Assembly: GCA_031364845.1 (NCBI GenBank)
Contig: JANLWX010000205.1
Location: 1-42,129 of the forward strand
Origin: Candidatus Eiseniibacteriota bacterium
GTDB lineage: Bacteria; Eisenbacteria; RBG-16-71-46
Direction of reading: 5' to 3'
DNA: 42,129 nt
Positions within the stretch are counted from its first letter, which is position 1. Each line of letters starts with the position of its first letter. Made by a program: the position numbers and the translations under genes. Of this stretch, positions 2,034 to 19,638 are shown in pieces. The notes under the pieces are model-generated. The model saw only the letters and a program-made list of their open reading frames with translations, made no database searches and was not told the origin of the DNA.

Positions 2034-2315
2034 TCAGCCGAGCGGGCCAGCGAGCAAATCGTCGAGTTGAGAATCGGGTGCCGCAATGACATGACGTCCG
2101 ACGACTTCACCGACGCGCGCCGCGGCCGCGACGCCCGCGGCGACCGCCGCTTCGACCGAGCCCACGTCCCCGCGCACCGCCACCGTCACGAGCGCGCCGG
2201 AGATGCGTTCGTAGCGGACCAGGCGTACGTTGGCCGTCTTGCACATCGCGTCCGCAGCTTCGACGGCGCCCAGGAACCCGCGCGTCTCGATGAGTCCCAG
2301 CGCTTGTGTTCCCAC
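2034..2315 (-). CDS. BMC-H hexamer shell protein (second paralogue)
   Basis: ALGLIETRG...[12 protein letters not shown]...[16 protein letters not shown]...HVIAAPD; GTG start with GGAG upstream. Confidence 0.94.
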
Positions 2316-2377: not shown

Positions 2378-2406
2378 AACCTAACAGGCGGACCGGTGGG
2401 GGTCAA
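2378..2406 (-). promoter_or_regulatory. sigma70-type promoter of the BMC operon
   Basis: Minus strand TTGACC-N17-TAGGTT, about 60 nt upstream of the first BMC-H start and downstream of a terminator hairpin. Confidence 0.7.
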
Positions 2407-2469: not shown

Positions 2470-2501
2470 AAACGCCGCCCCCCGTCTTTGGGGTGCGGCG
2501 T
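2470..2501 (-). terminator. Intrinsic terminator-like hairpin ending ncRNA unit 1
   Basis: Minus strand ACGCCGC-ACCCC-AAAGAC-GGGGG-GCGGCGT followed by TT (short U tract); same position relative to the repeat unit as the 2997-3034 terminator. Confidence 0.6.
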
Positions 2502-2756
2502 CGGGCGATATCATGGGCCACCTGGATCACGTCTGGAGGTGTCTGGCGCTTGAAGCGATGTCGCTCGTGAGCCAGGGGCCCGACAAATTGGTTCCCCATA
2601 TCGACCGTGCGCCGGTCCGTAAGACTCCTTCGGCTCGCGATAGGGGATCAGCCCACAGCCGGTCAACCACGCGTCGCACAGGGAACACAATGTTTGGTTT
2701 TTTTTGAGCCGCGGTCGTCGTTCGTGCTGCGTGTCTGCTCACGACTGCGGTGATAC
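2470..2756 (-). ncRNA. Putative structured small RNA, copy 1 (~287 nt, family not recognised)
   Basis: Lies between a sigma54-type promoter and a terminator. Predicted 5' hairpin, A-rich linker (AAAAAAAACCAAAC), 96-nt rod (2591-2686), and stem 2515-2581 (GGGCC-CCUGG-C-UCACG / CGUGA-U-CCAGG-U-GGCCC) whose loop carries GCGCCAGACACCUCCAG. Homologous to copy 2; G-U pairs in the rod favour the minus strand. Ends are inferred. Confidence 0.7.
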
Positions 2757-2767
2757 CGAAGTACATC

Positions 2768-2781
2768 GCAAGCTCGGTGCC
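2768..2781 (-). promoter_or_regulatory. sigma54 (RpoN) -24/-12 promoter of ncRNA copy 1
   Basis: Minus strand cGGCACCGAGCTTGCg = GG-N10-GC, close to consensus TGGCACG-N4-TTGC; conserved at the same position in copy 2. Confidence 0.72.
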
Positions 2782-2996
2782 GCGGCGCATCCCGCAGGCC
2801 GCGCGGTGGCGGAACGCGCCGCAAGTCGATGACCGCGAACGCAATGACGCGCGCGGCTCCACCATCGGAGACAGGAGTCGCGCGCGGCGCGCTGTGCTCG
2901 ATTGGGGCGTATGGCGCGATCAAGGGCGCCGGCATGGGTGGAAGCGCGGAGCGAAGTTGGGTTCGACGGCGGGCCGGTTCCACGCCGGCCGAACTC

Positions 2997-3034
2997 AAAA
3001 CAAAAGCGCCGCGCCCGGAGGAGGTGGCGCGGCG
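2997..3034 (-). terminator. Rho-independent terminator ending ncRNA unit 2
   Basis: Minus strand CGCCGCGCC-ACCTCCTCCG-GGCGCGGCG followed by CTTTTGTTTT. Confidence 0.8.
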
Positions 3035-3286
3035 TTTCGTTGAGATGAAGGGCCCCCGGTCACGCTGGAGGTGTCTGGCGCACTGGAAGTACATGAGCCG
3101 ACGGCCCGACAAAAACGTTCCCCGCCTCGACCGTGCGTCGGTCCGTAAGACTCCTTCGCTCGCGATAGGGGGTCAGCCCACAGCCGATCAATCACGAGTC
3201 GCACAGGGAACAACACTTATTCAGTTTTGGGCCGGGCGCCGCGTCCCGTTTCCGGGATCCAAGTTCGCGGCGACGCCGGCTTCACT
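2997..3286 (-). ncRNA. Putative structured small RNA, copy 2 (~290 nt, family not recognised)
   Basis: Same architecture as copy 1: 5' hairpin capped by UCCCG-GAAA-CGGGA (GNRA loop), A-rich linker, 95-nt rod (3117-3211), stem 3050-3107 with the identical 17-nt loop motif, then terminator. Ends are inferred. Confidence 0.72.
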
Positions 3287-3297
3287 GAAGTAGGTTC

Positions 3298-3311
3298 GCA
3301 AGTGCGGTGCC
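3298..3311 (-). promoter_or_regulatory. sigma54 (RpoN) -24/-12 promoter of ncRNA copy 2
   Basis: Minus strand cGGCACCGCACTTGCg = GG-N10-GC; differs from copy 1 only in the spacer. Confidence 0.72.
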
Positions 3312-3505
3312 GCGGAGGCTGCGGCATGCGAAGTCGGAAGGAGTTCGGGGTCCAATCCGAAGCGGCAGAACAGATTGTCGCCGGGGCGTGCGCCGTCAGG
3401 CGAAGGCAGCCCTCCCCTCACCCGCCGCAATTCCCGGGTGTGATCGCTCGGAATCCGCATGCGAGTGGGAAATGCCGCGCAGCCGGCAGTGCGGCGAGTG
3501 GTGAG

Positions 3506-4591
3506 CTACGCTCCGGCGGGCTCCGGGGCCGAGGTCGCCGCGGTCGCCGGAGTTCCTTCGAGCAGCGTCTCGGCGAAATGGCATGCCGACCAGTGTCCCG
3601 GCCGTACCTCGCGCAACAGCGGCTCTTCGACGGCACACATCGGCTGCGCCATGAAGCACCGTGGATGGAACCGGCATCCCGACGGCGGCTTTGACGGACT
3701 CGGCACGTCGCCCTTGAGCACGATGCGCTTGCGCCGCCGCGCGGGATCGGCGATCGGGATCGCCGACAGCAGTGCGATGCTGTACGGATGCAGCGGCCGG
3801 GCGTAGAGCCCGCGGCTCGTGGCCAGCTCGACGATCTTGCCGAGGTACATGACCGCCACGCGATCGCTGATGTGCTCGACCACCGACAGGTCGTGAGCCA
3901 CGAACACATACGTGAGGTTCATCGACTTCTGGAGGTCGCGCAGCAGGTTGATGATCTGCGCCTGGATGGACACGTCGAGCGCCGACACCGGTTCGTCGGC
4001 GACGATCAGGCGCGGGCCGACCGCGAGCGCGCGCGCGACACCGATGCGCTGGCGCTGGCCACCCGAGAACTCGTGCGGATAGCGCCGCGCGTGATCGGGC
4101 GACAGTCCGACGGTGGTGAGCAGTTCGGCGACGCGCTCGCGCGCCTTCGCGCCGCGCGCGATGCCGTGGATCGAGAGCGCCTCGCCGATCATGCTGCCGA
4201 CGGTGAGGCGCGGGTTCAAGCTCGAGTAGGGATCCTGAAACACGATCTGCATCTGGCGGCGCAGCTCACGCAATTCGCGGCGCGGCATGGTCGTGACTTC
4301 GCGTCCGTCGAAGCGCACGCTGCCCGAAGTCGGTTCGATCAGACGCAGGATGCAGCGTCCGGTCGTGGTCTTGCCGCATCCGCTCTCGCCCACCAGCCCC
4401 AGCACTTCACCGGGTGCCACCGAGAACGTGACGCCGTCGACCGCGCGCACCGCACCGACCGTGCGCGGGATCAGTCCCTTGCGGATCGGGAAGTGTTTGA
4501 CGAGACCTTCGACCGCGAGCAGCGGCGTTTCAGTCTTTGCGGTGCCGCTCGCCTGGCCTGCCGCCATCGGAACTTGGGGAGTCGCACTCAC
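3506..4591 (-). CDS. oppF: Oligopeptide/dipeptide ABC transporter ATP-binding subunit
   Basis: [32 protein letters not shown]-terminal GCRFHPRC...C...SACH domain. Confidence 0.95.
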
Positions 4592-11460: not shown

Positions 11461-12303
11461 TTATCGAAGCGCGGCAGTATAGGAACCGGATTCGGGCGGG
11501 GTCAACAGAAACGCTCCCGCCGCGCCATCGAGCCGACGGGCGCCCGGCAGTTCCGACGCGAGGACGTCCGCCCAGCGTTCGAGCGGCGCCTCGGGTTCGA
11601 GGTACTGGCCAGCTTCGATCGCGCGCGACTCGAGCGTTGCGCGAGCGGCCTCCTGATGGTCGCGATCGATCGCCAGATAGTCCGTGACCCGCAGGTGGCC
11701 CTTCCCGAGCAGCACGCTGCCCTGTTGCAGCAGCGCGCGGGCGGTACGCCGCTGGGCGCTGCCCACCAGCTTGCGGCCCTCGAGCACGACTTCGTGACGC
11801 GCGGTCGACGCAAAGCACGGTGCGGCGGGCGCAGGCTTCGCGGATGATGTCGTCGCGGCAATCCCGTGGTGCCGATCCGCCGTAAGTGCATCGTCTGCCA
11901 TCGCCACGGGGCGAGCGGTGGCGGCAGCGTGCTGCGCCGGAATGCCGAGCCGGATCAACGACCGGACAAGGAGTCTGGAGATCGCGTCATAGGATTGCGT
12001 GAGCGAGCCGCCCCATTGCGCATCCTCGAGCCGCGCGGCGAGTGAATAAGTCCACTCCTCGGCGTGGAAGATCGCGCGCCCGCCGGTGGGCCGCACCGCC
12101 CACGGCACGCCCGCGGCGCGGCAGCCATCGAGGTCGAGTTCCCACTCCGGCCGTTGCGCGTAGCCGAGCGTGATGCCATACGGACGGAAGCGGAACAGCC
12201 GCAGAACGGGTTCGGCATCGACCGCTTCGGCGCGCGAAAGCAACAGCGCATCGCGATGCATGTTCTCCGCCGGATCGTGGTCGCCGTCACACCACAGGAT
12301 CAT
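11461..12303 (-). CDS. Lipoate-protein ligase / octanoyltransferase family protein (LplA/LipM-like)
   Basis: AENMHRDALLL, PVLRLF, VRPTGGRAIFH, PCF, GRKLVGSAQRR, LLQQGS; catalytic-domain length only. Confidence 0.88.
   Translation of the reverse strand: MILWCDGDHDPAENMHRDALLLSRAEAVDAEPVLRLFRFRPYGITLGYAQRPEWELDLDGCRAAGVPWAVRPTGGRAIFHAEEWTYSLAARLEDAQWGGSLTQSYDAISRLLVRSLIRLGIPAQHAAATARPVAMADDALTADRHHGIAATTSSAKPAPAAPCFASTARHEVVLEGRKLVGSAQRRTARALLQQGSVLLGKGHLRVTDYLAIDRDHQEAARATLESRAIEAGQYLEPEAPLERWADVLASELPGARRLDGAAGAFLLTPPESGSYTAALR
11476..11505 (-). promoter_or_regulatory. sigma70-type promoter for the peptide ABC operon, inside the 3' end of the lipoyl ligase gene
   Basis: Minus strand TTGACC-N18-TATACT. 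Confidence 0.72.
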
Positions 12304-12331
12304 GACCGCGGCACTGCGATGGAGATCGCGC

Positions 12332-13021
12332 TCAGCGCAGACCGAGCCAGTTCTCGAGCAGGAACTGGAAGCGTCCGATGAGCAGAGAGATGCGCGACAT
12401 CACGGTGTAGCCGTAGCCCGCGCCGAAGCCGACCATCAGGAAGTAGATACCGAGCTTGGACGCCACGCCGAGCGCACCCTTGTGCTCGCGGCTGAAGAAG
12501 AAGAACAGCAGCGACGTGATGAGCCCGACCGTGAACACAATCGCGCTGATCGTGCCGCCGATCGTGGGCATCAGGATCGGCTGGAGGCTCGCCTGTACCT
12601 GGGCCACGAAATCGCCCTGCGCGAAGCCGGTGGTCTTGATGCCGGCGTAGACGCCGATGATCACGGCGAGCGGCCAGCGCGACAGCCACCCGATCTTTCC
12701 CATCAGGCGCGTGAACAGCAGCAGTCCGAGAATTCCGGTGAAGATCAGGAATCCACGATAGTCACCGACTTCGGCGGCGAACATTCCCGTGTGAGCGGCG
12801 TTGACGCCGGTGCCGCGGAACGCCTTGCCCAGCGGCAAAATCAGGTTCGGATAGATGACCGTCCAGAAGTTGAGGATGATGTAGTAGCCACCCGACACGC
12901 CCACGAACAGATGCTCGGCGAACTTGTAGAGCGGGTTGTCCTTGTAGAGGAAGCTGAAAACGAACAACGTCAGCGCGGCCGCGACCCATACCGCGAAGTC
13001 GGTCGAAATGTGCAGGCTCAT
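12332..13021 (-). CDS. Hypothetical integral membrane protein (about 6-7 TM), GlmL-like module
   Basis: Start re-called at MSLHIST (ATGA overlap); SFLYKDNPLYKFAEHLFVGVSGGY, FLMVGFGAGYGYTVMSRISLLIGR; mostly hydrophobic. Confidence 0.85.
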   Translation of the reverse strand: MSLHISTDFAVWVAAALTLFVFSFLYKDNPLYKFAEHLFVGVSGGYYIILNFWTVIYPNLILPLGKAFRGTGVNAAHTGMFAAEVGDYRGFLIFTGILGLLLFTRLMGKIGWLSRWPLAVIIGVYAGIKTTGFAQGDFVAQVQASLQPILMPTIGGTISAIVFTVGLITSLLFFFFSREHKGALGVASKLGIYFLMVGFGAGYGYTVMSRISLLIGRFQFLLENWLGLR

Positions 13022-13836
13022 GCCGTCTCCCGCCGCTTCGACCGGCGCACCAGGTTGCCGAGGACGATGCAAAGTGCGACGAACACGTGTCCGAGCGACT
13101 GCGCGTCCATGCCCTTGGTCGCCGAGCCGCTCTCACCGCGCGACTTCTCGTATTCGGCCGCCCCCGCCATCCCTCCGAGCAGACCCTGCAGCTGGCCCGA
13201 CTGCAGATACGGATAGAACTCGGGCGCGCTCACCGCGGTCACACCCGCGACCATCGGCAGGTGGAACCGCGCCTGCACCTGTTGCACCCATTCCTTGGTG
13301 CCGGGATAGCCGGCGGAGATGTTCACCAGCAGCGGGAACGTCGAATAGTCGCGCACGTTGCGCATGATCGGGAACCTGCGCGTGTCGCCTCCGGTGTAGT
13401 CGCGTGGGAATGCGTTCGCGATGCCCTGCCCCATCACGACCATCACCGCTTCGTTGCCGGCCTTGTAGCCGAGATTGATCCAGTCGGTCCCGTACACCTT
13501 GCCCGGAAATTCCTTCGCGGTCTCGCGCGTGATGCTGTCGACCAGTCCGGGACCCGCGTTCCACAGCACCGTGATCACGATCTTGCAGTCCTTCGACAGC
13601 AGATGGCGCATGGCGGTGCGCGTCATCGGCACCATTTCGGGGATGGCACTGGGATCGTAATCGCACGACATCAGCACGGTGGATCCGTTCGGCACCTTGT
13701 CGATGCCATCACGGAAGCCCAGCACTTCCTTGGAGACCGTGAGCGGAAGCGAGAGCGGGAACAGCAGCGGAAAGAACACCAGAAGTCCCATGACGAGGAA
13801 GATCCAGCGGCGGTCGAGGTTTTCGAGCCACTTCAT
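13018..13836 (-). CDS. Hypothetical membrane-anchored protein (N- and C-terminal TM, central alpha/beta domain), GlmL-like module
   Basis: Start re-called at MKWLENLDRRWIF after GGGGAGG; DYDPS..PEM, DWINLGYKAG, PYLQSGQLQGLLGGMAGAAEYE. Confidence 0.85.
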   Translation of the reverse strand: MKWLENLDRRWIFLVMGLLVFFPLLFPLSLPLTVSKEVLGFRDGIDKVPNGSTVLMSCDYDPSAIPEMVPMTRTAMRHLLSKDCKIVITVLWNAGPGLVDSITRETAKEFPGKVYGTDWINLGYKAGNEAVMVVMGQGIANAFPRDYTGGDTRRFPIMRNVRDYSTFPLLVNISAGYPGTKEWVQQVQARFHLPMVAGVTAVSAPEFYPYLQSGQLQGLLGGMAGAAEYEKSRGESGSATKGMDAQSLGHVFVALCIVLGNLVRRSKRRETA

Positions 13837-13840
13837 GAGA

Positions 13841-14503
13841 TCAATCCTCCCCACTCAGGTACGATCGCTCGATCCCGAGGATCACGCGCAGGCCGGTCGC
13901 CATGACGCCGAGTGCCGCGCCGATCAGAATCGCCCGTTTCGCTGCATTCTGCGGGAAGTTCATGATCCAGTCCTGCATTACGCTCAAGTGCAGCGCGTCG
14001 GGCAGGAAACCCGTGAACTTGTCTCCGACCGGCACGCGTCCGAGCATCACGATCAGTGCGGCGACCGCGAGCAGGCCGGCCTCGACCGTGCGGATCCGGA
14101 ACGCGCGGAATGCCGCCGAGGCGATGAAGAACGCGAGCAGCGAGAACAGCGTCGCCGACATCGGCGAATAGATCGTGTCGTAGATCCACTTGGAGCGCGT
14201 GCCCTGGTTGAGGAAGCCACCGTCGTGCGCGATGCCGTCGAGCGCCCCGACGCCGACCGTGATCAGCAGCGAGACCACGAGCAGAATCTTGTACTGCCAG
14301 TCAGGCGAGCGCTTGGAGATCGCGTCGAGATTGATGCGCAGCACGTTCGCGCCGCCGAGCACATAGCCGAATGCGACCACTACGATCGCGGTCGCCTGCA
14401 GGAAGTCGGCGGGGACGCTCACCCACTGATGGGGCACGAAGAACGACAGGATCATGAACAGGCCGATCACGGCCGTCATCAGCAGCGGGAGCTCGCGTTT
14501 CAT
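13841..14503 (-). CDS. Hypothetical integral membrane protein (about 6 TM), GlmL-like module
   Basis: SPMSATLFSLLAFFIASAAFRAFRIRTVEA, LGRVPVG, AAKRAILIGAALG, LRVILGIERSY. Confidence 0.85.
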   Translation of the reverse strand: MKRELPLLMTAVIGLFMILSFFVPHQWVSVPADFLQATAIVVVAFGYVLGGANVLRINLDAISKRSPDWQYKILLVVSLLITVGVGALDGIAHDGGFLNQGTRSKWIYDTIYSPMSATLFSLLAFFIASAAFRAFRIRTVEAGLLAVAALIVMLGRVPVGDKFTGFLPDALHLSVMQDWIMNFPQNAAKRAILIGAALGVMATGLRVILGIERSYLSGED

Positions 14504-14515
14504 CCGGTCACGCTC

Positions 14516-15739
14516 CTACTGGGTTTCCATCCACTTCGTGAACCCGTGGATGCCCATGGTTTCGAGCACGCATCCGACGAGGACCGAGAGGATGATGAGG
14601 ATCTTCATGTAGTCGGCGCCCTTGAGGCTGCCGACGCGCTTCGGATCGCCGGACAGATAGGCGCTCGCGGCGAACAATTCCTCACCGATCAGCGTGTAGT
14701 CGCACGCCACGACGAAGAACGGCAACTGGTGCACGTTGGCGGTGCCGGCGACCTGGATCGCGCCGGTCGAGAAACCGGTCTCGGCGAGCAGCAGCGACTC
14801 GGCGTAGAAGGCGCCCATGAAGATGTGTGCGGCCGGCTTGTCGCGCAGCATGATGCCGGTCACGGCCGCGACGTAGGCGAACTGCTCGGGCGTGATGAAA
14901 CGCACGCTGTTGGGATCGTACTGATCCGGTTTGCCGGCGTGCAGATACCCCGCCTTCACCATTTCTTCTGCGATCGTGAACGGAATCGGGTAGGTGACGG
15001 GCACCGTGATCGGCGTCTCGTACTTCGCCGTGAGTTTGGCGACGTTCTCGAGGATCACGAGGCCGGCGACGGTCTGGATCTCGTCGATGTCGAGGATGCC
15101 CGGAATGTAGAGCACCGAGCGGCCCATCTCGGTGGCGCGGCCGATCGCTTCTTCGATCGCGTCGATGCCGGGAATGCGGCGCACGAACGGCTTCTTGCCG
15201 CTCTGGGCACTGGCCATGAAGTACAGCACGAAGCCGAAGAACAGGATCGTGCCCACGAGCACGCTGTAGCGGCCGTTGTTGAACCACTGGGACGTGGCGC
15301 GCAGCGGACCGGTGACGCTGCCGGCCGGTACGACCTGCGTGAGGTTGTAGGTGCTGATGCGATAGAAGTAGTCGGTGTTGCGCCGGACCGACTGATCCGT
15401 GTACGCCGTCACGCCGGCCGCGAGCGAGTCCACACGCTGCCACGGTCCGGTGGGATCCTCGGCGCGATCGACGTAGTAGCCGACCACCTTGCCGACGCTG
15501 TCGTCCGGCGAGGCCTTCCACGTGAGCGCGAGCGAACGTCCGGCATCGTTGTCGACGTCGGTCCCGAGGAGCCCCGAGGCCGGCGCGAGCGATGCCGCGG
15601 CCACGACGGCCGTGTCGGCCGGTGCCTGGGCCAGGGCCAGGGCAGGGTTCGCAAACAGCGCGATGACGATCGAGACGACGCCGAGTCCGAGGGCGATCAG
15701 ACCCGTTCCGCAGTGCGGTGCGCGTCGCATCATGGCCAT
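14516..15739 (-). CDS. Membrane protein with signal peptide, fibronectin type III-like domain, TM helix and C-terminal domain (DUF6754-like, from recall)
   Basis: Start re-called after GGGGAGG (15739 or 15733). FN3-like pattern LTWKASPD...GYYVDR...YTD...YFYRI; TM VLVGTILFFGFVLYF; then VRRIPGIDAIEEAIGRATEMGR...FYAESLLLAETG...QVAGT...QLPFFVVACDYTLIGEELFAASAYL. Confidence 0.85.
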   Translation of the reverse strand: MAMMRRAPHCGTGLIALGLGVVSIVIALFANPALALAQAPADTAVVAAASLAPASGLLGTDVDNDAGRSLALTWKASPDDSVGKVVGYYVDRAEDPTGPWQRVDSLAAGVTAYTDQSVRRNTDYFYRISTYNLTQVVPAGSVTGPLRATSQWFNNGRYSVLVGTILFFGFVLYFMASAQSGKKPFVRRIPGIDAIEEAIGRATEMGRSVLYIPGILDIDEIQTVAGLVILENVAKLTAKYETPITVPVTYPIPFTIAEEMVKAGYLHAGKPDQYDPNSVRFITPEQFAYVAAVTGIMLRDKPAAHIFMGAFYAESLLLAETGFSTGAIQVAGTANVHQLPFFVVACDYTLIGEELFAASAYLSGDPKRVGSLKGADYMKILIILSVLVGCVLETMGIHGFTKWMETQ

Positions 15740-15816
15740 CGAACCTCCCCTGACGGGTGATGGGCTCCATAAAAAACAGGAAATCGTGCCGCGGCTCCGG
15801 CACGATCGCGTGCGCG

Positions 15817-15846
15817 AAGCTAGCAGCGCCGCCGAATTTCTGTCAA
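15817..15846 (-). promoter_or_regulatory. sigma70-type internal promoter upstream of the four membrane-protein genes
   Basis: Minus strand TTGACA-N18-TAGCTT with extended -10 TG. Confidence 0.72.
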
Positions 15847-15877
15847 CGAACATGCGACCGGCGCGGCATCCGGCGGG

Positions 15878-17002
15878 TCATGGCGCGATCAGTTCCACGT
15901 TTGCGCGCGGCACCATCGCGCGCGATCGATCGTCTGCGAACTCGACCACCAGCACGCGGACCTTGGTCTCCGACTCGAGCACCTGGAGTTCGGCGGGCAA
16001 CTCGACGACATTGCCGATGCGCCCGAAATACGGCTCGCGGATGACACGCAGCAGCGAACCGATCTCGAGGCCCATCGAGGCATCGCCATCCGCGGCATCG
16101 GTGGCCGCGGCGGCGCGCGGGATCAGGATCTCGGGCCGCATCACGCCGGCGCGGATCTGGGTTGCGCCGCTCACGCACGCGAGTTGACCGGCGTTCCCCG
16201 ACAACAACGCCCACGTGCGCTCCGCCATGCGGATGTGACCGAATCCTTCGGTGAGGACCAGCGTGAAGCCGAGATCCTCGGAGCCGGTGATGGCCACGCC
16301 GAGGTCCTTGCCCAGCAACTGGCGCAGGTCGTGATCATCGAAGCCGCCGACCACGACCGCGACCGCGCCCACTTCACGCGCGCGCATCAGGGCCGCATGC
16401 GAGACGTGCGACCCTCCCACCACGACCTTGCCCCGGTGCTCCGGCTTGAAGTGCCCGGGCGTCAGCGCCTCATCGGGCGAGGACGCGGCGATCGCGATTT
16501 CGCCGAACGTCTCGCCGCCGACTCCGAAGATGCCCTGTAGGAATGCGGCGTGCGCTTCGACGATCACGCCCTCACCCGGGATCACTTCGGCCACCACGCC
16601 ATGGACGTAGGCATTGACCTCGACCGGGATTGGCGGCTCGCGCAGGATCAATTGACCCGTCACTGTGGAAACGCTCTCGAGCGTTCCATCCACAGGCGCG
16701 GTCGCGGAGTTCTTGACCATCCCGAACAGGCTCTTCGCGGTCGCGATGATCTCGTCCTTCTTGACCTTGGAACCGATCGGCCGCACCAGCGCTTCGGCGA
16801 CCTTGGCCGGATCGACCGACAACTTGGACGCGAGGTTCACGGTCTGAACGTTGCCGGGAAGTTCGGTGCGCGCGACCACGGTGTCGGCCGCGACGCGGTC
16901 GCCCTGAGCGACCAGCACGTCGCCCTTGAGCGGCAGCCGCCGCTCGCGGCGCAGCACGGTGTGTTCGGTGACGCGCAGACCGGGAGTGTAGGCGTGTGCC
17001 AC
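15878..17002 (-). CDS. Hypothetical protein with repeated barrel-sandwich-hybrid motifs, a central alpha/beta domain and a C-terminal KOW-like domain
   Basis: VLVAQGDRVAADTVVA, IGSKVKKDEIIA...APVDGTLESV, AYVHGVVAEV; LTEGFG; IGSLLRVIREPYFGRIGNV; GTG start with GGAGG. Confidence 0.85.
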   Translation of the reverse strand: MAHAYTPGLRVTEHTVLRRERRLPLKGDVLVAQGDRVAADTVVARTELPGNVQTVNLASKLSVDPAKVAEALVRPIGSKVKKDEIIATAKSLFGMVKNSATAPVDGTLESVSTVTGQLILREPPIPVEVNAYVHGVVAEVIPGEGVIVEAHAAFLQGIFGVGGETFGEIAIAASSPDEALTPGHFKPEHRGKVVVGGSHVSHAALMRAREVGAVAVVVGGFDDHDLRQLLGKDLGVAITGSEDLGFTLVLTEGFGHIRMAERTWALLSGNAGQLACVSGATQIRAGVMRPEILIPRAAAATDAADGDASMGLEIGSLLRVIREPYFGRIGNVVELPAELQVLESETKVRVLVVEFADDRSRAMVPRANVELIAP

Positions 17003-17003
17003 G

Positions 17004-18815
17004 TCAGACCTCCCGCGGATACATGTCGAGCGCGCGATTCCAGGCGCGCAGTCTCTGGATCCGCGCCGCGGCGTCGGCCGGCATCGTGAACGGCTGCCGC
17101 CCGCGCGTGTCGATGATCAGCCCCACCACGCCCCCCTTGATCGTTTCCTCGATCGCCTTCCCCTTGCCCGCGCCGAGGTCGAAGCCGCGCTCCGGTGTCG
17201 CGAGCAGTCGCGCCGTTCCCTCGGCCGGAAGCGGCAGCAGCACCAGCTCCCCGAAGGGGATGCTGCGCTCGATGCGTTCCATGCCGGGAGCGCTGACGTC
17301 GATCTTGACGCACGACTGGCCTGGTTTGCCGCCGCCGACCGGCGCGAGCACCGCGCCGAGGCGGATCAGGCAGTCGGCCTCGAACACCTGGGTCGCGGCC
17401 TCCTCATGGACGGTGGACAACACGCCGAGCTGCGGAGCCATGAAGATGCTGTCGACCGCGAGGTGCGTGATGCCTTCGGGCAGGAAGGCATCGATCATCA
17501 TGAGCGCCGACTGCACCCGGCGCGGCGCGTGCGACAGCACGCCGCCCGAGCCGACCAGCAGCCCGAGATCGAGCAGGTTCACGAGCGACGAGCCGCTCTC
17601 ACTCTGCGACATGATGTCCGAGATGGTGCGCTGCGTCTGGATACCCTTGAGTCCGACCGCGAGGGCTTTGTGCTGCTCGAAGGCGAGCCGCAGCGCCTCG
17701 CGCGAGAGCGCCTGTTCAATGACCAGGTCCTCGAGCGTCTGCGGAATGGTGGTCGGACGGATCATCTTGTTCTTGACCCGGTTGCGGAGATCGACCTCGT
17801 CGACATCGAACGGCACCCAGCGCAGGATGTTGTCGATGCCGGCTTCCGACATGACGTTCGAGACCGAGTAACTCATGCCGAGATTCGCGGACACCGTGCG
17901 ATTGAACACATCCTGGAACACCGAGAACACGTCGGTCGTCGCACCGCCGATGTCGACCCCGACCACCGCGATCTGATCGCGCTTGGCGACCTTCTCGATG
18001 ATGAGCCCGACCGCACCCGGGGTCGGCATGATCGGAACCGGTGACCATGTCATGAGCTTCTTGTATCCCGGCGCGTGCGCCATCACGTGCTCCATGAACA
18101 GATCATGGATCGCATCGCGCGCAGGCTTGAGATTTTCGCGTTCGAGCGTGGGCCTGAGGTTCGGAACCACGCTCAGGGCGGTCCGCGATTCGAGATTCTC
18201 TCGCACCACCGGCACCGCATCGCGGTTGCCCGCGTAGATCACCGGCAGCTCGTAGCCGGCCCCCAACCGCGCGCGCGGATCCGCGGCGACGATGATCTCG
18301 GCCATCTCGGCGACGCGCTTCACGTCGCCTCCGTCGGTGCCACCCGACATCAGGATCATGTCGGGGCGCAGCTGGCGCAGCCGGCGGATCTTCTCGTGCG
18401 GGCGCCGCCCGTCGTTGAGCGCGATCACGTCCATCACGATCGCACCCGCGCCGAGTGCTGCGCGTTGCGCGCTCTCGCCGGTCATCTGGAGCACGAGGCC
18501 GGACACCATCATCTGCAGTCCGCCGCCCGCGCTCGAAGTCGAGACGTAGAGATCGACGCCTTCGGTCCCGTTCTGCGGCGAGATGATGCGGTCGCCGTCC
18601 AGCATGCGACGGCCCGCGAGTTCCTCGACTTCACGCACCGCGTTCAGCACACCGCGCGTCACGTCCTCGAACGGCGCCTCGACCGTCGTCGGGGCTTCGC
18701 CGCGCACGATCAGACGGTACTGGTCACCGCGCTTCTCGATCAGAATCGCCTTGGTCGTCGTTGAGCCACAGTCGGTGGCGAGGATCGATCGGATGTTCTC
18801 GGGAAGGATGTCCAT
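17004..18815 (-). CDS. GlmL-like (glutamate mutase L / methylaspartate mutase accessory) ASKHA-fold ATPase
   Basis: ATDCGSTTTK, APTTVE, TSSAGGGL, AALGAGA, PDMILMSGGTDGG, IYAGN, IMPTPGAV, VDIGGATTDVFS, RTVSANLGM, GSGGVL. Confidence 0.88.
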   Translation of the reverse strand: MDILPENIRSILATDCGSTTTKAILIEKRGDQYRLIVRGEAPTTVEAPFEDVTRGVLNAVREVEELAGRRMLDGDRIISPQNGTEGVDLYVSTSSAGGGLQMMVSGLVLQMTGESAQRAALGAGAIVMDVIALNDGRRPHEKIRRLRQLRPDMILMSGGTDGGDVKRVAEMAEIIVAADPRARLGAGYELPVIYAGNRDAVPVVRENLESRTALSVVPNLRPTLERENLKPARDAIHDLFMEHVMAHAPGYKKLMTWSPVPIMPTPGAVGLIIEKVAKRDQIAVVGVDIGGATTDVFSVFQDVFNRTVSANLGMSYSVSNVMSEAGIDNILRWVPFDVDEVDLRNRVKNKMIRPTTIPQTLEDLVIEQALSREALRLAFEQHKALAVGLKGIQTQRTISDIMSQSESGSSLVNLLDLGLLVGSGGVLSHAPRRVQSALMMIDAFLPEGITHLAVDSIFMAPQLGVLSTVHEEAATQVFEADCLIRLGAVLAPVGGGKPGQSCVKIDVSAPGMERIERSIPFGELVLLPLPAEGTARLLATPERGFDLGAGKGKAIEETIKGGVVGLIIDTRGRQPFTMPADAAARIQRLRAWNRALDMYPREV

Positions 18816-18821
18816 GACCTC

Positions 18822-19157
18822 TCAGGTTCGTGGTGTGCGGGCGGCGCGGCGCTCGGCGGCGGCGGCGTGTCGCGCGTTCTGTGCGGTGTCGGCGTGTTCC
18901 TCGATCGATCGCATGAGGACTTCGAGCGTCTCGCGCCGCTCGATGAGCTGGGCGAAGCGGCGGTAGTCGGGAAGCCTGAGGAACGCGCCGACGATCGGCT
19001 CGAAGAACACCATCGCCTGTCCCGCGAGCAGTGACAGCGGGCGCGCGCCCTCTATCGTGAGCAGTGCCGGAACCTCGAGACGCAACTCGACGATGCGCGC
19101 GGCGATGCGCCCGAGCAGCGCGCGATCCTCGGCGGTGATCACGAGATCAGAGCTCAT
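18822..19157 (-). CDS. Small hypothetical protein
   Basis: Start re-called at MSSDLV; LEVPALLTIEGARPLSLLAGQAMVFFEP...LIERRE; co-oriented and tightly packed in the operon. Confidence 0.75.
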   Translation of the reverse strand: MSSDLVITAEDRALLGRIAARIVELRLEVPALLTIEGARPLSLLAGQAMVFFEPIVGAFLRLPDYRRFAQLIERRETLEVLMRSIEEHADTAQNARHAAAAERRAARTPRT

Positions 19158-19638
19158 GGCGTTCCCAATGCGATCGCGCCGCGGCGAGTACTTCGTCACG
19201 CCGGGCGGCAGGCAATGGAAGCACCAGCGCGCGGAACGCATCGAGCCGGCGCGGGTGCGTGAACGGCGACATCACGATCGCGTCGCGACCGGGACGGGCA
19301 CGGCGCAGATCAGCCCAAACGCGACGCTCCCAGCCGAACGCGCTGCGCAACGCGACGCCGGCGTCGTCGATCCGGCACTGAGAGGGAATCAGCAACGGAG
19401 CCAGCGTCCCCGCCGCGGCAAGCGCCAGCAGTACTCCGAGCACGGCACTCGAGAGCAACACCGTCACCAGCGCGTACACGCCGATCGTGAACACGAGCGC
19501 GATCGCGGCGCGTCCGGGCCGCTCGCGCCATGGATTCCACCTCCACTCGATCGCGGCCAAAGCGGCATCGAGCCGGGGCGCGGGCACCGAAACCACGGGC
19601 ATCGCGCCCTGCCCGTGGAGGGCCGCCGTCGGATTCAT
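19147..19638 (-). CDS. Hypothetical membrane protein (2 TM plus a possible PH-like C-terminal domain)
   Basis: Start re-called at ATG 19638 overlapping the gcvPB stop (ATGA); WRWNPWRERP, two hydrophobic helices, PSQCRIDDAGV, LDAFRALVL. Confidence 0.7.
   Translation of the reverse strand: MNPTAALHGQGAMPVVSVPAPRLDAALAAIEWRWNPWRERPGRAAIALVFTIGVYALVTVLLSSAVLGVLLALAAAGTLAPLLIPSQCRIDDAGVALRSAFGWERRVWADLRRARPGRDAIVMSPFTHPRRLDAFRALVLPLPAARRDEVLAAARSHWERHEL

Follow-up and report, generated by a model that had tools for sequence, protein, structure and literature searches.

Introduction

In the literature cited here, 6S RNAs are described as mimics of housekeeping promoters with a length of ~160-200 nt. 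The pRNA of E. coli 6S RNA starts at U44 (PMC3988568). According to PMC8876501, the P2 helix of 6S RNA contacts β/β′ and, in E. coli, the terminal closing stem is dispensable for polymerase binding while trimming of the apical stem abolishes holoenzyme binding. The same source reports that a 78-nt B. subtilis 6S-1 devoid of the -35 region binds ~10-fold more weakly, makes pRNA and is released, this working truncation having retained the whole central bubble. In Actinobacteria, Ms1 and CoRP are described as 6S-like RNAs binding core polymerase (PMC4191392, PMC11077062).

We report here the analysis of a 42,129-nt contig (JANLWX010000205.1) of a Candidatus Eiseniibacteriota bacterium, the whole of which is called the window in the following. 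It carries two copies of an uncatalogued half-size, sigma54-linked RNA, very probably a 6S paralogue and named here mini-6S. No description of such an RNA was found in the literature searched; subscription surveys of 6S distribution could list short paralogues.

Results

Organization of the two units

A first, sequence-only reading of this DNA had described two homologous minus-strand units located 530 bp apart, each preceded by a GG-N10-GC promoter of the sigma54 type, and both points held. Using nhmmer on the 4.6-Mb window genome, units A and B were matched and no others, with 80.7% identity over 181 nt (E=1.3e-38); their promoters, spaced by 530 bp, are listed in Table 1 with the other features. 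Each copy is composed, on the minus strand, of a sigma54-type element, a leader, a rod, a third stem and a terminator-like hairpin, and the folding z-scores of the two units were -3.33 and -3.79. The rod had been read as ~95 nt long with a compensatory C-G to U-A swap and a 1-nt indel; the alignment of the two copies, identical in 88 of 101 columns, confirmed the swap and a net 1-nt indel, copy A exhibiting one extra C in the apical loop. Other parts of that description stood only partly. The 5' hairpin and A-rich linker are present in copy B, but the leader is variable, with 39 of 75 columns identical between A and B and a length of 36-106 nt in the family, neither sequence nor length being conserved. 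The third stem does fold in both copies, but its long form was seen only in the window's family, and a terminator-like hairpin is found at both units, but with only three U in copy A.

Table 1 Features of the mini-6S locus in the window (positions on the forward strand).
Feature	Position	Strand	Remarks
Upstream neighbour, oligopeptide ABC transporter ATPase (OppF-like)	3506..4591	-	conserved upstream in the family
Sigma54-type -24/-12 promoter, copy B (upstream)	3298..3311	-	GGCAC-N5-TTGC at 3311-3298; predicted +1 at 3286
Variable 5' leader, copy B	3214..3286	-	hairpin and A-rich linker
Rod, very probably 6S-homologous, copy B	3114..3213	-	closing stem, P2-like helix, 5' bubble start, small apical hairpin; top match of the full-length-6S model R3 in the window, E=0.012
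Putative equivalent of E. coli U44, copy B	3172	-	C
Third stem, family-specific, copy B	3050..3107	-	by folding
Intrinsic terminator-like hairpin and U-rich tail, copy B	2997..3040	-	
Sigma54-type promoter, copy A (downstream)	2768..2781	-	GGCAC-N5-TTGC at 2781-2768; predicted +1 at 2756
Variable 5' leader, copy A	2689..2756	-	
Rod, very probably 6S-homologous, copy A	2588..2688	-	rank 9 of R3 in the window, E=0.31
Putative equivalent of E. coli U44, copy A	2647	-	U
Third stem, family-specific, copy A	2515..2581	-	by folding
Terminator-like hairpin and short U tract, copy A	2470..2504	-	
Sigma70-like promoter of the downstream BMC genes	2378..2406	-	TTGACC-17-TAGGTT at 2406-2378
Downstream neighbour, first BMC shell gene	2034..2315	-	

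Covariation and strand

The family alignment was built with 63 sequences out of 66 unique units. It showed pairing in 94.2% of the cells and two-sided changes in 14 of the 43 pairs; none of 500 shuffles attained either value, and slid controls paired in 34-49%. In a cross-family alignment two-sided changes were found in 15 of the 28 pairs, both counts of such changes being inflated by the relatedness of the sequences. The four top pairs by mutual information are all within the rod. G-U combinations occupied 259 cells versus 19 for A-C, and the minus strand is therefore fixed. The initial proposal of a structured non-coding RNA with covarying pairs, read on the minus strand, was thus borne out.

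The C-rich segment GAUCCCC is unpaired and nearly invariant across two phyla, and the apex past GAUCCC varies from family to family. Within the window's family a 30-nt apex is identical in 57 of 66 units, partly by construction as many loci were found with that motif.

Distribution and copy number

A search for homologues had been suggested from the sequence. By BLAST the element was found in all 24 family genomes, 23 of these matches being strong, and the core motif was retrieved at 61 loci, in records mostly titled Ca. Eisenbacteria. Two models were then used, a covariance model of the unit (R1) and a broader rod model (R2). R1 matched 78 of 88 genomes of the family and 89 of 102 of the order, and R2 matched 109 of 151 genomes of the phylum Ca. 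Eisenbacteria, many of these R1 and R2 matches belonging to the training sets and hence scoring by construction; the BLAST, R1 and R2 tallies for family, order and phylum, and the rpoN tally given below, include one unpublished genome (G026), on which alone no claim rests. In seven Ca. Eisenbacteria families (f9, f11 and f13-f17; 32 genomes) R2 found no match. In a second phylum (record titles Eisenbacteria, Effluviviaceae or 'bacterium'), 29 of 31 genomes were matched by R2. Viral contigs gave no match to the family motif and a single one to a loose pattern, unsupported by R2. With loose patterns, 0 of 95 GTDB loci from other taxa, among the matches listed, scored with R2, and four of five genomes of other groups had no R2 match. 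Five loci under titles of unrelated taxa (L041, L044, L080, L086 and L087) contain both the RNA and, downstream of it, the same BMC genes, and are probably mislabelled or mis-binned.

Most relatives have one copy at a fixed locus, and the pair of the window is a local, lineage-specific tandem duplicate of a mostly single-copy gene. The analogy first drawn with the multicopy Qrr, CrcZ and Pxr sRNAs is misleading because the relatives are nearly always single-copy. A dispersed mobile repeat (MITE or REP), considered from the start, was rejected, the genome containing two copies and most relatives one at the fixed locus. Two other arrangements were observed: a degenerate tandem rod directly behind the RNA in G008 (L022:1699-1796), and, in G100, two incomplete copies separated by 4.6 kb at the end of a contig (L121).

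Relation to 6S RNA

The Rfam scan of the window yielded no family at threshold, in agreement with the sequence-only reading, only ar14, Xoo2 and mir-375 appearing, far below; the Rfam 6S model (RF00013) gave no match in the window at E<=10. The 6S and SRP RNAs of the window genome are located elsewhere, and a small SRP RNA (RF00169) was rejected as identity of the unit, with no Rfam match in the window. In pairwise comparisons with full-length 6S RNA, one window copy scored 42.4 versus 27.7 ± 5.6 for shuffled sequences (maximum 44) and the other 34.4 versus 28.1 ± 5.3, neither being significant, and alignment of the window copies to E. coli 6S RNA gave nothing.

The further claim that the RNA belongs to no recognisable family was, however, not upheld, as the rod could be linked to 6S RNA with profiles and covariance models, whichever of the two RNAs served as query. 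Among distant homologues, Rfam 6S produced sub-threshold matches in 4 of 20 loci (best 34.1 bits, E=0.0031), the best scores of 34.1-34.3 bits being below the gathering threshold of 46.4 bits. The closing stem and P2 are aligned, the latter in two displayed f10 homologues, ~95 model positions are replaced by 15 nt and the apical arm is skipped. Eight sub-threshold Rfam 6S loci of another set lie in genomes also holding full-length 6S RNA. A model trained exclusively on 32 full-length 6S RNAs (R3) matched the rod, in the correct orientation, in all 32 mini-6S loci, 21 at E<0.005, and its top 24 matches on these loci were all rods; the displayed matches span the closing stem only, P2 and the start site not being aligned. 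In the reverse direction, R1 recognised 9 of 31 full-length 6S loci, each time where the 6S RNA lies (best E=1.8e-4). With the profile of the rod 5' arm, the corresponding arm of 6S RNA was recovered at 28 of 31 loci and the 10 stray matches were all at E>2; the 3'-arm profile matched only 9 of 31. R2 did not recover full-length 6S RNAs and gave only partial matches to them (E>=0.07). The distance between the stem motif and the putative U44 equivalent is 37-41 nt in five mini-6S RNAs and 40 nt in the 6S RNAs of E. coli and of the window genome, and the equivalent is a U in 47 of 48 sequences, copy B of the window being the exception with a C.

On these grounds, the homology of the rod to 6S RNA is, in our judgement, highly probable. 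The rod appears to keep the 6S closing stem, and probably also P2 and the pRNA start site, an equivalence that rests for these two on the Rfam alignments, the spacing and the motif. Regarding the defining features, the closing stem with conserved 6S sequence is present, according to the 5'-arm profile, R3 and covariation. The large central bubble with two long arms, the -35-like apical arm and the length of 160-200 nt are absent, the rod measuring 100-107 nt, and by these features mini-6S is not a standard 6S RNA.

Most genomes bearing mini-6S contain a full-length 6S RNA at another locus. In genus g22, mini-6S was found in 9 of 9 genomes and full-length 6S in 0/9 and 0/3 (Rfam or R3), where a divergent 6S could be missed; G022, 99% complete, is an example with mini-6S and no full-length 6S found by Rfam or R3. 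The same search in the second phylum gave 0/4 and 0/5, a divergent 6S being again liable to be missed. G185-G188 and G192 likewise have mini-6S and no full-length 6S found by Rfam or R3. Two full-length 6S RNAs and one mini-6S are present in G027 (L518, L519, L138).

Other short RNAs of this type were observed. Further rods of 92-120 nt with a 6S-type closing stem and without the sigma54 motif occur in families f3, f4, f8, f10, f12 and f13 (L136:1554-1649, L139, L141, L142, L154, L143, L152, L312 and L316-L318), in some genomes alongside the sigma54-linked mini-6S, and are possibly a second class of short 6S paralogue. A 123-nt 6S-like RNA (L320, G124:C85:37792-37914) still has the CACCUGG motif found in the 3' bubble of full-length 6S RNA and looks like an intermediate stage of truncation. 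In a third phylum, 6 of 151 genomes showed rods of 87-91 nt with a 6S closing stem and no sigma54 motif (L466, L497-L501); the centre genome also holds a full-length 6S RNA.

Sigma54 promoter and transcription

Of the 62 family units with a complete flank, 61 are preceded by the sigma54 motif, compared to 3 of 752 background windows. For distant units, 62 of 63 were positive with a loose rule (background 32/807) and 54 of 63 with a strict one (4/807), so that the promoter type proposed at the outset is conserved; upstream of full-length 6S genes the motif was found in 0 of 35. The presence of rpoN, which had been put forward as a check, was confirmed in the window genome, together with ~20 full-length sigma54 activator domains. 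With the conserved GG-N10-GC upstream and with rpoN and activators in the genome, the unit has the attributes of a sigma54-dependent gene with a predicted start. Co-occurrence of rpoN with the RNA is uninformative, 146 of 151 genomes having rpoN. Two rpoN-type matches and no detectable mini-6S were observed in most genomes of families f13 and f15. The search for enhancer motifs upstream returned no single conserved one, the best 6-8-mers occurring in at most 25 of 61 and looking clade-specific. The units would be under the control of an enhancer-binding protein.

Metatranscriptome contigs of relatives (166-252 nt; runs X1-X3) cover the unit, two having an end that falls close to a plausible start, ~100 nt upstream of the core; runs X1-X4 held only 5-11% of words. 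These contigs, all short and from relatives, show neither strand, start nor level and weakly suggest that the units are transcribed.

Proposed function and alternatives

Our preferred explanation, to which we give slightly better than even chances, is a sigma54-induced mini-6S binding RNA polymerase with little sigma70 contact. The unit would be a stand-alone gene for a shortened 6S paralogue transcribed by the sigma54 RNA polymerase, and mini-6S would accumulate once the promoter is activated by an enhancer-binding protein. The downstream-DNA channel and the active site of the polymerase would then receive the closing stem, the P2-like helix and the open loop of mini-6S, in the manner of 6S RNA. 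Mini-6S would thus keep the half of 6S that mimics the downstream DNA and the template start, and lose the -35-like arm and most of the bubble. As neither the -35-like apical arm nor the -10-like 3' bubble is left, sigma70 region 4 is expected to contribute little to binding, and mini-6S would hold the core enzyme, or the holoenzyme weakly. Synthesis of a short product RNA from the conserved U might bring about its release, and the likely effect would be a signal-dependent shift of polymerase between sigma factors. In favour of this reading are the persistence of mini-6S where no full-length 6S was found and the binding, pRNA synthesis and release of the 78-nt B. subtilis 6S-1. Against it stand the loss of holoenzyme binding upon apical trimming in E. 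coli, the dispensability there of the closing stem, to which the displayed R3 matches are confined (PMC8876501), and the central bubble, which mini-6S, unlike the working B. subtilis truncation, does not retain as a whole. It may be speculated that, owing to the U/C difference between copies A and B, initiation would take place with G in copy B instead of A, a difference separating B. subtilis 6S-2 from 6S-1 according to PMC3753640.

A 6S-derived RNA re-purposed as a base-pairing sRNA, with either GAUCCCC or the third-stem loop containing CCUCC as anti-Shine-Dalgarno seed, seems unlikely. The C-rich segment would have the invariance and the unpaired state of a seed, and the CCUCC-type motifs of the third stem and terminator loop lead to the weak ar14 match in the window (26.9 bits, gathering threshold 58.8). 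However, this segment lies at the 6S pRNA-start position, which could explain its conservation, and no Hfq was found in the 97%-complete window genome. In 2197 crude start regions, the complement of a 7-nt seed occurred 3 times versus 8.4 expected and that of 9-10 nt was absent, while the 11-nt complement in 61 family genomes is found essentially only in the RNA's own gene, with sporadic extras. An Hfq-dependent sRNA of the Qrr or ar14 type was rejected, with no Hfq, no conserved (perfect) target and no Rfam match at threshold.

We give rather little credit to a GlmY-like decoy, in which a sigma54-driven mimic of the 6S terminal stem would titrate a nuclease, an adaptor or another protein acting on 6S, and so control 6S abundance indirectly. 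The part best conserved between the two RNAs is indeed the closing stem, the one reported in PMC8876501 as unneeded for polymerase binding in E. coli, and a precedent is given by the sigma54-driven GlmY, described as protecting its homologue GlmZ by mimicry (PMC4152352). This reading is weakened because some lineages keep mini-6S and show no full-length 6S, namely g22 (mini-6S in 9/9) and the second phylum (29/31), where a divergent 6S could be missed.

Quite improbable too is the binding of another protein or ligand through the family-specific apex, the 6S-derived stem serving as scaffold only. Such a ligand could account for an apex so uniform within the family (57/66, partly by construction) and different between families, but no candidate protein gene travels with the RNA, whose neighbours vary by family, and although CsrA is present, GGA occurs only 3 and 6 times per ~290 nt. 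A protein sponge of the CsrB/RsmZ type was rejected on the same count (3 and 6 GGA in 287 and 290 nt).

A cis-regulatory, riboswitch-like leader of the BMC operon, to which the position of the BMC genes, downstream of 59 of the 64 units in the family and likewise in families f2 and f3, would point, is very improbable in view of the 5 of 64 family units without BMC genes downstream, the unrelated neighbours in other families (phosphoglycerate mutase, peptidase S49, OPT transporter, phosphofructokinase), the match to a separate sigma70-like promoter (TTGACC-17-TAGGTT) downstream of 20 of 25 units, and the strong terminator ending copy B, after which the second copy follows. A stand-alone gene, separate from the BMC operon, is favoured because of these units without BMC genes, unrelated neighbours and separate promoter; both the independence of the unit and the sigma70-type promoter of the BMC genes had been correctly anticipated. 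In the window, positions 3-2315 contain BMC shell genes, EutN and an aldehyde dehydrogenase. A run of co-oriented genes at 12300-19241, adjoining glycine-cleavage genes, includes DUF6754, a Pfam 'MutL' (PF13941) protein and several ORFs without a Pfam match.

Discussion

The sigma54-induced mini-6S that we propose would be a polymerase-binding RNA. More tentatively, and with less confidence than in that proposal itself, mini-6S may represent an ancient natural class of 6S paralogue that discarded the sigma70-recognition half and is made by the sigma54 polymerase, so that an enhancer-controlled signal would sequester core polymerase (or the sigma54 holoenzyme) and steer sigma-factor competition, ordinary 6S RNA being replaced in some lineages. 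Through a half-size 6S RNA conserved in two phyla and always preceded by a sigma54 element, 6S-type regulation would be connected to signals that act via enhancers. Mini-6S also provides a natural experiment on the parts of 6S RNA that polymerase binding and sigma specificity require, and on the conservation of a terminal stem that is dispensable in vitro. Short 6S paralogues of other lineages may likewise be missed by the Rfam threshold; a further, sigma54-less group was found here.

Among known systems, GlmY is comparable as a sigma54-transcribed paralogue without one functional part of its partner RNA, as described in PMC4152352; mini-6S has no sequence relation to it and, unlike GlmY, persists where the putative partner was not found. 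Ms1 and CoRP would be functional analogues if our preferred explanation holds. They differ in being longer than 6S RNA (~300 and ~500 nt) and in having, in the descriptions of PMC4191392 and PMC11077062, no sigma54 link; no homology to them was detected, Rfam giving no such match for the window or the distant homologues.

The closest relative is 6S RNA itself (SsrS, RF00013; E. coli 6S, B. subtilis 6S-1 and 6S-2). Mini-6S resembles it in the sequence and register of the closing stem and probably also in a P2-like helix (GRGCU/AGUY compared to GAGCC/GGUUC in 6S) and in the spacing to the putative U44 equivalent, and as in B. subtilis there is a second copy besides the normal 6S. In contrast, its rod has ~100 nt instead of 160-200, without apical arm and -35-like region and without a separate 3' central bubble or its hairpin; it scores below the Rfam threshold, has a sigma54-type promoter, which full-length 6S genes lack (0/35), and carries a variable 5' leader and, in the window's family, an extra 3' stem. 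The engineered B. subtilis 6S-1 variants 6S78 and 6S82cp share with mini-6S the absence of the -35 region and, as reported in PMC8876501, such short 6S RNAs still bind polymerase, make pRNA and are released. The reduction was nevertheless made differently: in the engineered RNAs the long terminal stem was removed and the central bubble left complete (PMC8876501), whereas in the natural mini-6S the terminal stem is kept and the bubble is shrunk to a loop of ~23 nt or a hairpin.
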